In this document: piece after piece, positions 7,987-45,855 of the stretch
Numbering within the stretch: the first letter of the stretch is position 1
Layout of the letters: each line of letters begins with the position of its first letter
Origin: Lawsonibacter sp.
Lineage (GTDB): Bacteria; Bacillota; Clostridia; Oscillospirales; Oscillospiraceae
Reading direction: 5' to 3'
NCBI GenBank assembly: GCA_022795855.1
Contig: JAAWHL010000001.1
Location: 12,478 to 76,477, forward strand
DNA length: 64,000 nucleotides
Translations under genes and position numbers: made by a program
The notes under the pieces: model-generated
What the model was told of the DNA's origin: nothing
The model's database searches: none
The model's input: only the letters and a program-made list of their open reading frames with translations

Positions 7987-8100
7987 CGCAAAAAAGGTCT
8001 AGTCAAAAGCATTGATATCTGTTACAATATGAAGTCGCAAGTATAACGGCGCAGTGGCTGCCATCCGGTGGAGCACAGCGCCCACAGGAGGAAAAGTTAC

Positions 8101-43634: not shown

Positions 43635-43907
43635 TCAAAAAATGCCGGGACAGGGGAGGGGAGAAGCGGTTATACTTTGAGCCGGGGTTCACCCGCCGCA
43701 TTTAACCGCGCCTTCCAAAGTATCAGCCGGCGCCCGGCACAGCGGAGCCTCAGTTCCAGGTTTGCCTGCCCAGGATCTGTGCACAATAGGTAAAGAAAAC
43801 CTAAGTTTTGTTTACCTGTAAAACGCAACATCAAACCGCGCCTCCCACAGGACGGCGCGTTTTGTGTTCCCTGCGCATAGAATAGCTGGAAAGGGGAGTG
43901 GCCAACT

Positions 43908-44450: not shown

Positions 44451-45488
44451 TTAATCTTGAGAATCCGGTTCCTTCGGCGCTGTCTTTTTACTTTTCCGGA
44501 CCTTTGCAAGCGGATTGGCCCGAGCTGCAGTACGCAGATTCTCGCTATCAATGTGGGTGTAGATTTGGGTCGTATTCAGATTATCGTGCCCGAGAACCTC
44601 CTGAAGTGTACGTACATCCACGCCGTTTTGCAGCATCAGCGTGGCGGCGGTGTGACGCAGCTTGTGGGAAGAGTACTGGCTGGAATCCAGTCCCGCCGCA
44701 GCCAAATGCTTCTTTACCAGCTTGTGTACCGCCGCAGTGGAAATTCTTCGCCGGTTTTGCAGGGTGACAAACAGGGCATTCCTGTCCACCAGCGTCAACG
44801 CACTGCGTTCCGTCAGCCAGTCCTGAAGCGCATTTTGACAGGCTTCATTCAAATAGAGAATGCGCTCTTTATTCCCTTTTCCCAAAACACGCAGTTGACC
44901 TTCTCGAACGTCTGTAACATTCAATCCGACCAGCTCAGAAATACGCAGGCCGCAGTTCAAAAACAGCGTCAGAATACAATAATCCCGGCTGGAATTTTTC
45001 CCCTCTACACTGTCCAGCAATTCTATGCTCTCGTCTAAATCCAGATAGCGCGGCAAGGCCTTTTTCAGACGCGGTGAGTCCAAATCCTGCATGGGATTTT
45101 CTTTCATCAGTTTCGCCTTAACGGTTAAGTACTTGTAAAATGAACGTATAGTGGCGATTTTTCGGGCGCGGGCTGACGGCGCCAGGCCGTAGGATGTGGA
45201 ATCGCTGTTGGGATGAGCTGCCCGGTCCCGGGAAAGATAACTCATGTAATTGTAAACATCCGTCAGTGTTACCGAAGAAACCAATTCTAAATCCACATCG
45301 TCAATTGAAATGGAGTCCATAGGGACGTCTTTTTCTGCAAGCCGGCGCTGCACCTTCAAATAACGGAAAAAATTGCGCAGGTCCAGAAAATATTCATCAA
45401 CAGTCTTTTTTGAGTGGTTCTGAATCGTTTCATGGTACACCAGAAAGTCCCGGATAATGGGCGGCGCTTCTGTACGATAATCTGTCAT
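44451..45488 (-). CDS. Tyrosine recombinase, XerS/XerC-like (345 aa)
   Basis: Intact R (GLRISE), K (GKGNKER), HxxR (HKLRH), H (LGH), Y (TQIYTH); no mobile genes nearby. Confidence 0.92.
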   Translation of the reverse strand: MTDYRTEAPPIIRDFLVYHETIQNHSKKTVDEYFLDLRNFFRYLKVQRRLAEKDVPMDSISIDDVDLELVSSVTLTDVYNYMSYLSRDRAAHPNSDSTSYGLAPSARARKIATIRSFYKYLTVKAKLMKENPMQDLDSPRLKKALPRYLDLDESIELLDSVEGKNSSRDYCILTLFLNCGLRISELVGLNVTDVREGQLRVLGKGNKERILYLNEACQNALQDWLTERSALTLVDRNALFVTLQNRRRISTAAVHKLVKKHLAAAGLDSSQYSSHKLRHTAATLMLQNGVDVRTLQEVLGHDNLNTTQIYTHIDSENLRTAARANPLAKVRKSKKTAPKEPDSQD

Positions 45489-45548
45489 GGCAATCTTATT
45501 AGGCGCGTCTGACGGCAAACTAGCTGTATAGCTGTATTTGCCTCCTCT

Positions 45549-45580
45549 CAGGTCAACAAAATTTTTATTTTGTTGACCTG
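45549..45580. other. Candidate dif site (13-6-13 perfect palindrome)
   Basis: CAGGTCAACAAAA-TTTTTA-TTTTGTTGACCTG, 61 bp upstream of the recombinase start, at the gene-orientation switch. Confidence 0.65.
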
Positions 45581-45855
45581 TGTGTTTCCGTGCGCTCCTC
45601 TCTCCTCTCTCCTCCGGATATCCCCATACTATCACGGCCGTCCGGATTTAGCAATAGGAAAAGTTCGCGCATCCAGGTTACCGAGAGAACCAGCAGCGCG
45701 GCAAACGCCAGCAGAAGCCCGTAGAACACCCAGGACGGCAGGAAAAAGAATGAAAACAGGATGGCCAGGGACAGCGGGAAAATCAGGCACAGTACAAGCC
45801 ACAGCCTAGCGGCGAGACTTGCCGAACCAGCTGCGGGCCGGACGGAATACATCAT
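45565..45855 (-). CDS. Small two-TM membrane protein
   Basis: GAGGTG RBS; two hydrophobic segments; stop codon lies inside the palindrome. Confidence 0.55.
   Translation of the reverse strand: MMYSVRPAAGSASLAARLWLVLCLIFPLSLAILFSFFFLPSWVFYGLLLAFAALLVLSVTWMRELFLLLNPDGRDSMGISGGERREERTETHRSTK

Follow-up and report, generated by a model that had tools for sequence, protein, structure and literature searches.

A perfectly palindromic candidate dif site beside a Xer-family recombinase gene common in Clostridia

Where do the Clostridia separate joined daughter chromosomes, and with which recombinase? To our knowledge, dif sites have been convincingly found in Bacilli, Proteobacteria, Actinobacteria and archaea, and not in the true Clostridia. 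A genome-wide survey (Kono 2011) failed to predict a dif for C. perfringens and C. beijerinckii, and placed the "dif" of C. botulinum about 174 degrees from the skew shift. The 64,000-nucleotide stretch of DNA analysed here (the window), from a mouse-gut bacterium of the genus Lawsonibacter, contains a tyrosine recombinase gene with a perfect palindrome just upstream of it. Is this palindrome a dif site? We think that it probably is, with a probability of roughly 0.8: judged from sequence, the palindrome would be the chromosome dif site and the adjacent gene would encode the recombinase that resolves chromosome dimers there. The pair looks like a variant of Xer/dif that is common in Clostridia, and its assignment to dif is strongly supported. 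Sequence and keyword searches of the literature found no published description of it. The features discussed below are as follows.

44451 to 45488, minus strand: Xer-family tyrosine recombinase gene, 345 aa, ATG at 45488
45549 to 45580, no strand assigned: candidate dif site, perfect palindrome CAGGTCAACAAAA-TTTTTA-TTTTGTTGACCTG, arms at 45549-45561 and 45568-45580, core at 45562-45567
45537 to 45550, minus strand: G-rich flank TGAGAGGAGGCAAA, directly 3′ of the 28-bp unit on the strand whose core reads TAAAAA
43789 to 43816, no strand assigned: second, degenerate dif-like site GGTAAAGAAAA-CCTAAG-TTTTGTTTACC, in the gap between the MBL-fold and Amidase_6 genes
45565 to 45855, minus strand: 96-codon ORF with a hydrophobic product, stop codon within the palindrome core

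The palindrome and the adjacent recombinase

The palindrome has perfect 13-bp arms and a 6-bp core, or, in an alternative parse, 14-bp arms and a 4-bp centre. The core reads TTTTTA on the plus strand and TAAAAA in the direction of the recombinase gene. Inside the palindrome lies a conserved 28-bp unit, GGTCAACAAAA-N6-TTTTGTTGACC (45551-45578). A preliminary description of this DNA had the location, arms and core of the palindrome right; it placed the site 61 nt upstream of the recombinase start, and the spacing to the ATG is 60 nt. It was also right that no U-tract is present, the gene-strand tail reading AGAGGAGGCA. The 32-mer occurs once in the 2.5-Mb, 127-contig assembly, as does each 11-13-bp arm. 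The unitigs of public runs end within the palindrome, which we attribute to co-resident relatives that have the same palindrome. Perfect palindromes with arms of at least 13 bp number 259 in the genome and 4 in a shuffled genome, and most of them are terminators. What is beyond chance at this palindrome is the uniqueness of its sequence, its conservation and its position, not palindromy as such.

The product of the adjacent gene has the catalytic R-K-H-R-H/W-Y set and the two-domain fold of a tyrosine recombinase, with a Pfam Phage_integrase match of 133.7 bits and an N-terminal SAM-like domain. All six of the R-K-H-R-H-Y residues are there, as had been claimed, and R182, K204/K207, H275, R278, H301 and Y310 are invariant among 11 orthologs with identities down to 46%. 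The best structural matches of its predicted fold (model pLDDT 76.6) are XerA, XerD and XerH. To which Xer family does it belong? The protein scores 221.6 bits with the XerC model, 203.6 with XerD, 192.4 with XerA and 153.4 with XerS, each below the cut-off (the equivalog cut-offs are 335 bits for XerC, 329.6 for XerD and 267 for XerS, NF003462), and the XerS match is split into two stretches. The name "XerS-like", given to the protein at first, has to be dropped: the protein is below the XerS cut-off and scores higher with XerC, XerD and XerA, and only the layout of the module and one arm of the site resemble XerS/difSL. It and its orthologs form a group that occurs widely in Clostridia and is separate from the curated XerC, XerD, XerA and XerS families; the protein collection assigns it no family name.

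The flanking genes are housekeeping genes, with priA, fmt and gmk on one side and those for an aldolase, an MBL-fold protein and an Amidase_6 protein on the other. Mobile-element genes are absent from among these neighbours, in agreement with the preliminary description. FtsK with a gamma domain is encoded in the genome.

Conservation, asymmetry and position

The system had been thought of as one of the Oscillospiraceae, and this proved too narrow. The recombinase has an ortholog in 38 of 41 relatives, including all 29 high-quality genomes, and at class level in 108 of 151 genomes and 76 of the 106 sampled genera of Clostridia. Conservation of the palindrome beside orthologous genes, a check that had been proposed, extends across Oscillospirales and much of Clostridia. 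The pattern ACAAAATNNNNATTTTGT is present in 34 of the 41 relatives and single-copy in most, with a reversed control pattern at about zero. Among 20 species of the genus the 28-bp unit shows little or no variation, despite differing flanks and neighbouring genes, and the gene-plus-site module is retained while the genes around it vary.

The sites also vary in an orderly way. The inner ACAAAAT is invariant in 106 sites, and the outer arm bases vary by clade, always symmetrically (GGTCA, AGTAA, AACTC, AATTG, AACGC, ATTAT). Such changes are what a homodimer-bound site that co-evolves with its protein should display. The 6-bp core, by contrast with the earlier expectation that it would be variable, differs only between families: it reads TAAAAA in the whole genus and in 74 of the 106 sites. 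The site may also lie away from the gene and is conserved there too: it is some 8 kb (7.9 kb) off in genome G033, 104 kb off in G028, and on other contigs in G027 and G039. At 13 loci the 28-bp unit is inverted relative to the gene.

The candidate dif element is made asymmetric, as far as its sequence tells, by a G-rich flank that tracks the orientation of the core. Of 92 sites, 80 have the flank on this side and 14 have it on the opposite side. Across 10 nt it is conserved at 0.3-1.2 bits per position, compared with about 0.1 on the opposite side. At 11 of the 13 loci with an inverted unit the flank goes with the core, and it also accompanies sites unlinked from the recombinase gene. Three interpretations of the flank were rejected. 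A Shine–Dalgarno sequence of the gene would not track the core when the unit is inverted, nor persist at gene-unlinked sites; a XerD binding site would not persist, as the flank does, in genera without XerD; and a second hairpin 3′ of the palindrome (G-rich arm, A-rich loop, C-rich arm) has a z-score of -0.48 against -0.35 for the mirrored flank (p = 0.58). The conserved feature is the G-rich sequence, not a hairpin structure.

Where on the chromosome does the module lie? In the eight closed genomes checked, the orthologous gene is always 164-186 degrees away from dnaA: at 176, 183 and 186 degrees in three genomes of the order, and at 45.5-50.5% of the chromosome in five further Clostridia whose sequences start at dnaA. 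Over 400 kb, the cumulative GC skew of the closed genome G014 stands at 8095 at the site, with a maximum of 8105, and that of the closed genome G033 has its maximum 2.4 kb from the site. On the focal contig the skew rises over 48 kb, is flat between 35.5 and 44.5 kb of the window and falls from the site onward. Polar heptamers behave likewise, with leading:lagging counts of 206:14 for GGGGGAG and 165:19 for GGGGAGG in G014, and 43:2 for AGGGAAG in G033. Their strand flips between -34 and +1234 nt of the site in G014, -879 and +2962 in G033, and -1542 and +341 on the focal contig. In G033, the switch of skew and heptamers coincides with the site and not with the gene. Heptamer polarity partly tracks gene orientation and is noisy on other contigs of the focal genome; the three signals, GC skew, gene orientation and heptamer polarity, are correlated and do not count as independent.

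The palindrome has the properties that are generally looked for in a dif site: it is unique, conserved, at the GC-skew shift opposite the origin, and non-coding but for one doubtful 96-codon ORF that covers half of it. Since it is unique, beside a Xer-type gene and where the replication arms meet, it is most likely the site at which joined daughter chromosomes are separated. The position, uniqueness, conservation and gene linkage of the site and the intact catalytic residues can be read directly from the genomes.

One recombinase or two

Does the adjacent recombinase work by itself? It had been described as lone, and a count of xer paralogs contradicts this: a bona fide XerD is encoded on contig C42 (345.3 bits, cut-off 329.6). 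The other four integrases in the genome are of the phage or small-recombinase type, and the search for a separate XerC in the genome found none, the focal protein being the only other one of Xer type. XerD is present in every sufficiently complete genome of the genus, its gene usually lies 1-50 kb from that of the orthologous recombinase, and the two are adjacent and convergent in G033 and G040. A putative SpoIIM-like membrane ORF adjoins xerD in the focal genome, so the gene is probably in what we take to be the spoIIM-ripX neighbourhood of B. subtilis.

These observations suit a different kind of dif, with a two-recombinase reaction in which the 345-aa protein is a diverged XerC partner of the canonical XerD and FtsK activates XerD, as in E. 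coli and B. subtilis. XerC is also the best model for the focal protein, and the arm TTTTGTTGACC matches the canonical XerD arm TTATGTnAAnT at 7 of 11 positions. However, the arms are identical over 11-14 bp, so there is nothing in the site to place two different proteins. XerD is absent in 8 of 17 related genera (genomes 91-100% complete), and the palindrome is equally perfect with or without it. The gene to which the site is linked is the focal one and not xerD, and XerD itself is canonical in sequence, with tandem TTATGTAAAC repeats beside its operon that suggest a separate, retained DNA specificity. A two-recombinase reaction is thus a possibility that we take seriously but hold to be rather doubtful; we lean towards the view that the focal recombinase works by itself even here, in a genome with XerD. 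The preliminary description had read the locus as a single-Xer dif module. Its dif part stands, with the site adjacent to orthologs, single-copy and at the terminus, and the single recombinase survives only by way of the phyletic pattern, the eight genera without XerD.

A dif of the Bacillus or E. coli type was not found at up to 8 mismatches in the focal genome (assembly 93% complete), nor at up to 3 mismatches in the closed genomes G014 and G033, and a looser canonical pattern showed no excess over control. Three findings had been named in advance as speaking against the proposed site: a canonical XerC/XerD pair with a Bacillus-type dif elsewhere, lack of conservation beside orthologs, and many copies as a terminator or REP. 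None of them was made. Two candidates were rejected. An apparent Bacillus-type dif at G009:497583 (1 mismatch in 22 nt) falls within an ORF of 368 codons, is preserved in G012 as coding sequence, and has a left arm and dyad unlike dif. The repeats of the TTATGTAAACC motif near xerD run in tandem in the same direction and are not inverted.

How does the candidate compare with known systems? XerC/XerD-dif of E. coli, with its counterpart CodV/RipX of B. subtilis, has the same protein family with GKGNKER and HxxR...H...Y motifs, the same 11-6-11 geometry and terminus location, polar G-rich motifs that converge on the site, and an orthologous XerD. It is unlike the focal system in that the focal arms are identical, rather than XerC- and XerD-specific, and differ from TTATGTAAACT. 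In addition, there is no XerC equivalog here to make up two canonical paralogs, and XerD is dispensable in about half of the related genera.

XerH/difH of Helicobacter and Campylobacter and XerA/dif of archaea use one recombinase on a nearly symmetric site, which is often beside its gene, and XerA is reported to act without FtsK. Both proteins are among the best structural matches noted above, but in sequence similarity both (76 and 107 bits) fall below XerD (125 bits). The arms of difH are imperfect, unlike those of the focal site, which resembles difH and difSL in its 11-6-11 geometry and its AAAA/TTTT inner arms. Cre/loxP likewise has perfect 13-bp inverted repeats, bound by a homotetramer, and a short asymmetric spacer that alone sets direction. 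However, it serves the maintenance of a phage plasmid, has an 8-bp spacer and does not involve FtsK, and Cre is only distantly related to the focal recombinase (Foldseek E ~1e-4).

XerS/difSL of Streptococcus and Lactococcus resembles the focal system in its single module at the terminus, with the site directly upstream of the recombinase gene (Le Bourgeois 2007, PMC1914069; PMC2965235), in its long protein (356 aa, and 345 aa here), in its inner AAAA/TTTT arms and in the presence of FtsK. The difSL of L. lactis is ATCTTTCCGAAAAACTGTAATTTTCTTGACA (Nolivos 2010, PMC2965235), and its right arm had been given correctly in the preliminary description, TTTTCTTGACA matching TTTTGTTGACC at 9 of 11 positions. 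In contrast to the focal site, with its perfect 11-14-bp arms and 6-bp (or 4-bp) centre, difSL is 31 bp long, with imperfect, unequal arms and an 11-bp centre; the focal genome also differs in keeping XerD. The single-recombinase XerL/dif system of Legionella and Coxiella has dif arms that are uninterrupted perfect inverted repeats of 10-12 bp (PMC9765430). Its site is, like the focal one, low in GC, unique, near the terminus and perfect in its arms, but the taxa are unrelated, XerL is divergent and detected by HHpred only, and dif and xerL of Legionella are >400 kb apart, whereas site and gene are usually adjacent here (PMC9765430). Fully symmetric dif arms are unusual, and XerL/dif of Legionella is the only precedent that we found.

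If the focal protein acts alone, two monomers would bind the two identical 11-14-bp arms, two sister dif sites would synapse as a tetramer, and strand exchange would take place at the edges of the central TAAAAA. FtsK would couple the reaction to division, guided to the site by the polar G-rich motifs that converge on it. Binding, cleavage and FtsK dependence at the candidate dif are what we infer. As the arms are identical, direction would have to come from the asymmetric 4-bp centre and the one-sided G-rich flank. A bolder and frankly speculative extension is that most Clostridia have an undescribed Xer/dif system, in which a single recombinase, as a homotetramer, recombines a perfectly symmetric dif and takes its direction from the 4-bp centre and the G-rich flank. 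This flank resembles the FtsK-orienting motif of the lineage but points away from the site, and could serve FtsK as a one-sided stop or docking point encoded in the DNA; XerD would be dispensable, a relic that has been lost repeatedly.

If the dif reading is true, it fills the gap for a class to which many dominant gut commensals belong, and gives Clostridia genomes and MAGs a precise marker of the terminus. It would also offer a natural test of how a fully symmetric site and one recombinase impose strand-exchange order and FtsK control, a set of lineages, some having XerD and some lacking it, for studying the role of XerD, and a site that Clostridia phages and integrative elements may exploit.

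Regulatory, mobile and other readings

Could the palindrome be only a cis-regulatory element of the recombinase gene, an operator or 5′-UTR hairpin with no recombination? In most genomes 24-150 nt separate it from the gene downstream, and in several relatives it follows a TTGACC-17-TATACT promoter. At the loci L007-L014, L017 and L026 its flanks form an outer helix that is species-variable yet complementary (z down to -5.9). However, this helix is absent in the focal genome (z = 0.2), and an Rfam search of the palindrome region at E up to 10 gave no match. The arms are conserved in sequence and not just in pairing, with 0 compensatory pairs by RNAalifold in 13 leaders of the genus, where the palindrome is the only structure. 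The unlinked sites described above are conserved all the same, with that of G033 on the skew switch, and the inverted loci point the same way. A purely regulatory role is therefore unlikely. An mRNA or operator role may coexist with dif function, since the site is between the likely promoter and the gene and is the tip of a covarying stem in a subset of the genus.

It is more improbable still that the palindrome serves a domesticated or mobile integrase as a site for attachment or inversion. The degenerate second copy, 1.7 kb off on the far side of the gene, would fit such a site, as would extra copies of the site in G009 and G026 and the occurrence of a Clostridia-type site in several phage contigs. 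Against this, the gene is single-copy, vertically conserved in the 76 genera and always near 180 degrees from dnaA, its surroundings are free of mobile-element genes, and the module is constant while its neighbours vary. The two copies in the focal genome have unrelated cores, so they would not recombine productively with each other. An intrinsic terminator or repeated REP-like element is effectively refuted by copy number and by sequence conservation far above what a terminator needs: a consensus scan does flag the palindrome as terminator-like on the plus strand, in a genome rich in perfect palindromes, but no plus-strand gene ends upstream, the gene strand lacks a U-tract and the arms are AT-rich.

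Two minor features lie close to the candidate dif. The 96-codon ORF has no Pfam match, and tblastn found it at no other locus; it is doubtful or lineage-specific and probably outside the dif system. The degenerate site is restricted to this genome; 3 of its 22 arm positions depart from the main site, and its core is unrelated. By a rough estimate about 0.01 matches of this type are expected by chance per genome. Its arms are closer to the main site of the nearest relative, G006 (GGTAAACAAAA...TTTTGTTTACC), than to the main site of its own genome.

The recombinase and its palindrome

The palindrome and the recombinase encoded beside it would together form a dif system. This reading, already proposed in a preliminary description of the sequence, finds good support in where the site lies, in its uniqueness and conservation, and in its linkage to the gene. 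The features concerned are as follows (window coordinates).

44451-45488, minus strand: tyrosine recombinase gene (ORF), 345 aa
45549-45580: palindrome CAGGTCAACAAAA-TTTTTA-TTTTGTTGACCTG, perfect 13-bp arms and 6-bp core or, alternatively, 14-bp arms and 4-bp centre
45537-45550, minus strand: G-rich flank TGAGAGGAGGC, consensus TgaG.GgAGg..aaaa
45565-45855, minus strand: ORF of 96 codons with a hydrophobic product, its stop within the palindrome core

The recombinase combines an integrase catalytic domain with a SAM-like N-terminal domain (Pfam). All catalytic residues are present, as first described: R182, K204/K207, H275, R278, H301 and Y310 are invariant across 11 orthologs, at identities down to 46%. 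The label "XerS-like" has to be given up, as the protein fails the XerS model (153.4 bits) and scores higher on those of XerC (221.6), XerD (203.6) and XerA (192.4), every one of these scores being under the curated cut-off. The closest solved structure by sequence is E. coli XerD (125 bits), followed by XerA and XerH, and the predicted model (pLDDT 76.6) matches XerA, XerD, the Brujita integrase and XerH. On these comparisons we place the protein in the Xer family, outside every named family.

The gene is flanked by housekeeping genes and, in agreement with the preliminary description, has zero mobile-element genes among its neighbours. The ortholog is single-copy in 38 of 41 relative genomes, and in all 29 of high quality (17 genera). 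A family profile search of the class recovered it in 108 of 151 sampled genomes, or 76 of 106 genera, with E values of 1e-100 to 1e-155; the genome's own XerD falls short of 1e-60 against this profile. Carriers include Pseudoflavonifractor capillosus, Lawsonibacter, Oscillibacter valericigenes, O. ruminantium, Butyricicoccus, Faecousia and Agathobaculum. The system is much wider than the Oscillospiraceae, to which it had at first been assigned.

The palindrome lies upstream of the gene, 60 nt (not 61, as first given) from the ATG; its perfect 13-bp arms and 6-bp core stand as described. The 32-mer and its arms each occur once in the 2.5-Mb assembly, so the single-copy check proposed earlier gave a positive answer. 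Symmetry alone is no argument for a dif, because perfect palindromes with arms of at least 13 bp are abundant in this genome (259, vs 4 after shuffling). Throughout the genus the unit GGTCAACAAAATAAAAATTTTGTTGACC, or a variant differing by 1-2 bases, was found 40-140 nt upstream of the gene in 20 of 20 loci, with surrounding sequence and neighbouring genes that vary around it. Palindromes beside orthologs, which the preliminary description had proposed to look for, occur in the whole genus sample and also across families, where 106 non-redundant sites share an invariant inner ACAAAAT and 74 have the centre TAAAAA. The outer arm bases differ between clades, both arms always together (GGTCA, AGTAA, GGTGA, AACTC, AATTG, AACGC, ATTAA, ATTAT). 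Such conservation within clades and symmetric change between them would be expected if two copies of one co-evolving protein occupy the site. The pattern ACAAAATNNNNATTTTGT was found in 34 of the 41 relatives, single-copy in most, and the control, the same pattern read backwards, is almost absent.

Alternatively, the palindrome could be a pure operator or a 5'-UTR element of the recombinase gene. This would be lost on separation from the gene, yet sites at a distance of 7.9 kb (G033) or 104 kb (G028), or on another contig (G027, G039), remain perfect palindromes of the same family. RNAalifold found no compensatory changes in the palindrome, though an RNA stem would show many. No relatives of the 96-codon ORF turned up among 30 orthologous loci, and it is unlikely to be a real conserved gene.

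At some loci in relatives (L007-L014, L017, L026) the palindrome tops a longer stem of about 45 nt each side, species-specific in sequence but with complementarity kept; at L014, CGCTAATCGCTCCTATTTGGCA pairs with TGCCAGAAAAGGAGCGGTTAGC (z = -5.9). At these loci the recombinase mRNA may therefore have a structured leader; our genome lacks the longer stem. The organism lives in the mouse gut, and in mouse-gut metagenome runs X1, X2, X3 and X5 (45544-45624) assembled unitigs end within the palindrome, where k-mer depth exceeds that of the flanks 10-40 times, or about 1.3-fold in X1, a low-depth run. The palindrome k-mers are common to several co-resident species of the genus.

Position at the terminus and polar sequences

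In the closed genomes G009, G014 and G033 the angle from dnaA to the recombinase gene is 176, 183 and 186 degrees. Elsewhere in the class, in five more closed genomes that start at dnaA and represent other families, the gene lies at 46.9, 48.6, 45.5, 50.5 and 49.9% of the length. Cumulative GC skew over 400 kb peaks at the site in G014 (8095, maximum 8105) and drops directly after it. G033 has its maximum 2.4 kb away from the site, and by the time the curve reaches the gene, another 8 kb on, it is already falling. Skew on our contig rises over 48 kb, reaches a plateau at 35.5-44.5 kb of the window and then falls, with the palindrome where the fall starts, and gene orientations converge at 44.45 kb.

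Polar heptamers, chosen in the 400 kb around the site of G014 and G033 as the frequent heptamers with the strongest leading-strand bias, switch strand close to the site there and on our contig (plus/minus counts).

G014: left of site 131/11, right 22/240; switch -34 to +1234 nt from site
G033: left of site 51/4, right 5/64; switch -879 to +2962 nt from site
This contig: left of site 48/9, right 1/20; switch -1542 to +341 nt from site

The leading:lagging counts are 206:14 for GGGGGAG and 165:19 for GGGGAGG in G014, and 43:2 for AGGGAAG in G033. These heptamers look like FtsK-orienting sequences, and the genome does encode an FtsK that has a gamma domain. As candidates for that role, GGGGGAG and GGGGAGG are about 92% on the leading strand in the genus, and AGGGAAG 96% in a low-GC relative. 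Their polarity is correlated with GC skew rather than independent of it, since on other contigs it is noisier and in part tracks gene orientation.

With each site turned so that its centre reads TAAAAA, 80 of 92 sites have a G-rich stretch 1-3 nt beyond the palindrome on its 3' side, and 14 have one on the other side; information is 0.3-1.2 bits per position vs about 0.1 on the opposite side. In 13 loci the unit runs opposite to the gene, and in 11 of these the flank keeps the orientation of the centre. It also persists at gene-unlinked sites and in genera without XerD, which rules it out both as a ribosome-binding site of the gene and as a XerD site. The flank resembles each lineage's own polar heptamer (GGGGAGG-like in the genus, GGGAAG in low-GC lineages with AGGGAAG), despite which it points away from the site; G033, G031 and loci L115 and L154 have it on both sides. 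It might act as a signal in the DNA at which FtsK stops or docks, giving a symmetric site handedness.

One recombinase or two

Besides the recombinase studied here, the genome has five integrase-family genes. None is a separate XerC, but contig C42 carries one that encodes a bona fide XerD (345.3 bits; cut-off 329.6), because of which "lone", the term first applied to our recombinase, is wrong for this genome. XerD scores at or near the cut-off throughout the genus and in seven other genera, often encoded 1-50 kb from the recombinase gene and directly adjoining it in G033 and G040. In eight genera (genomes 91-100% complete) we found no second Xer-type gene, and their sites are equally symmetric. 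Identical arms cannot position two different proteins, and we therefore favour a homotetramer of the recombinase acting on the site, with a probability of roughly 0.6. The same point tells against the main rival, a joint reaction of the recombinase and XerD at the site, which we regard as less likely.

The genome's xerD adjoins a putative SpoIIM-like membrane ORF; this would be the spoIIM-ripX neighbourhood of B. subtilis. About 0.9 kb upstream of xerD, before this ORF, four species of the genus have a tandem direct repeat of a TTATGTAAAC-like decamer (here TTATGTTAAC-ttta-TTATGTAAAC, C42:4670-4700; in relatives L213, L214, L216). In sequence these decamers equal the B. subtilis XerD (RipX) arm or come very close to it, and both copies vary in step between species. 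Being a tandem direct repeat, this was rejected as a dif; it may be an operator. If XerD binds it, one might conjecture that XerD specificity differs from that of the palindrome arms.

A Bacillus-type dif elsewhere, which the preliminary description named, with a canonical XerC/XerD pair, as evidence against its reading, did not appear: even when 8 mismatches were allowed, the genome yielded neither a Bacillus- nor an E. coli-type dif. With 3 mismatches allowed, a Bacillus-type pattern of 22 nt matches in just 4 of 41 relatives, with zero matches in closed G014 and G033, and matches to a looser pattern are no more numerous than in the control. The best match, in G009 with 1 mismatch, was rejected, as it lies within a 368-codon ORF, G012 keeps it as coding sequence, and both the left arm and the dyad of dif are missing. 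In Clostridium proper a published genome-wide dif prediction failed, or gave a "dif" about 174 degrees from the skew shift (Kono 2011).

Known systems and related palindromes

XerS/difSL and XerH/difH share with our system a site beside the gene, a long Xer protein and AAAA/TTTT inner arms. The difSL arm given in the preliminary description is correct (PMC2965235), and 9 of its 11 bases match ours; however, our protein does not pass the XerS model, and the two sites are unlike in symmetry and centre length. The XerL system of Legionella and Coxiella (PMC9765430) is the sole precedent we found for uninterrupted perfect arms. Identical arms with an asymmetric spacer are also seen in loxP. Sequence and keyword searches of the mostly openly accessible literature found no description of the site or of the family's role. 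The system is, on present comparisons, best filed as a candidate new form of Xer/dif.

Several related sequences were also seen. A second, degenerate copy, GGTAAAGAAAA-CCTAAG-TTTTGTTTACC (43789-43816), lies 1.7 kb from the main site, beyond the recombinase and Amidase_6 genes. It is confined to this genome, its arms resemble the closest relative's main site more than our own, and it may have been left behind by a duplication, or by an element that once integrated at dif. Further palindromes of the family in relatives (G009:C1:537214, G026:C42:5112, G003:C11:108823) may represent pseudo-sites or mark where integrated elements are attached; one example, AGTCACAAAATAAAAATTTTGTGACT, has an identical centre and lies 137 kb from the G009 main site. 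The Clostridia-type site ATTATACAAAAT-N4-ATTTTGTATAAT is also found in four to six phage families without a recombinase (IMG/VR contigs L194, L196-L209): between the small and large terminase genes in L197, beside packaging genes in L202 and at the extreme end of several short contigs. These phages may exploit the host Xer system for integration or multimer resolution. Finally, a separate family of AT-rich perfect palindromes, ATTCTTTTTCTTTT-GAAA-AAGAAAAAGAAT, has a member at about 27629 in the window (C95:40106) and some 20 more across the genome, and is unrelated to the dif-like site.
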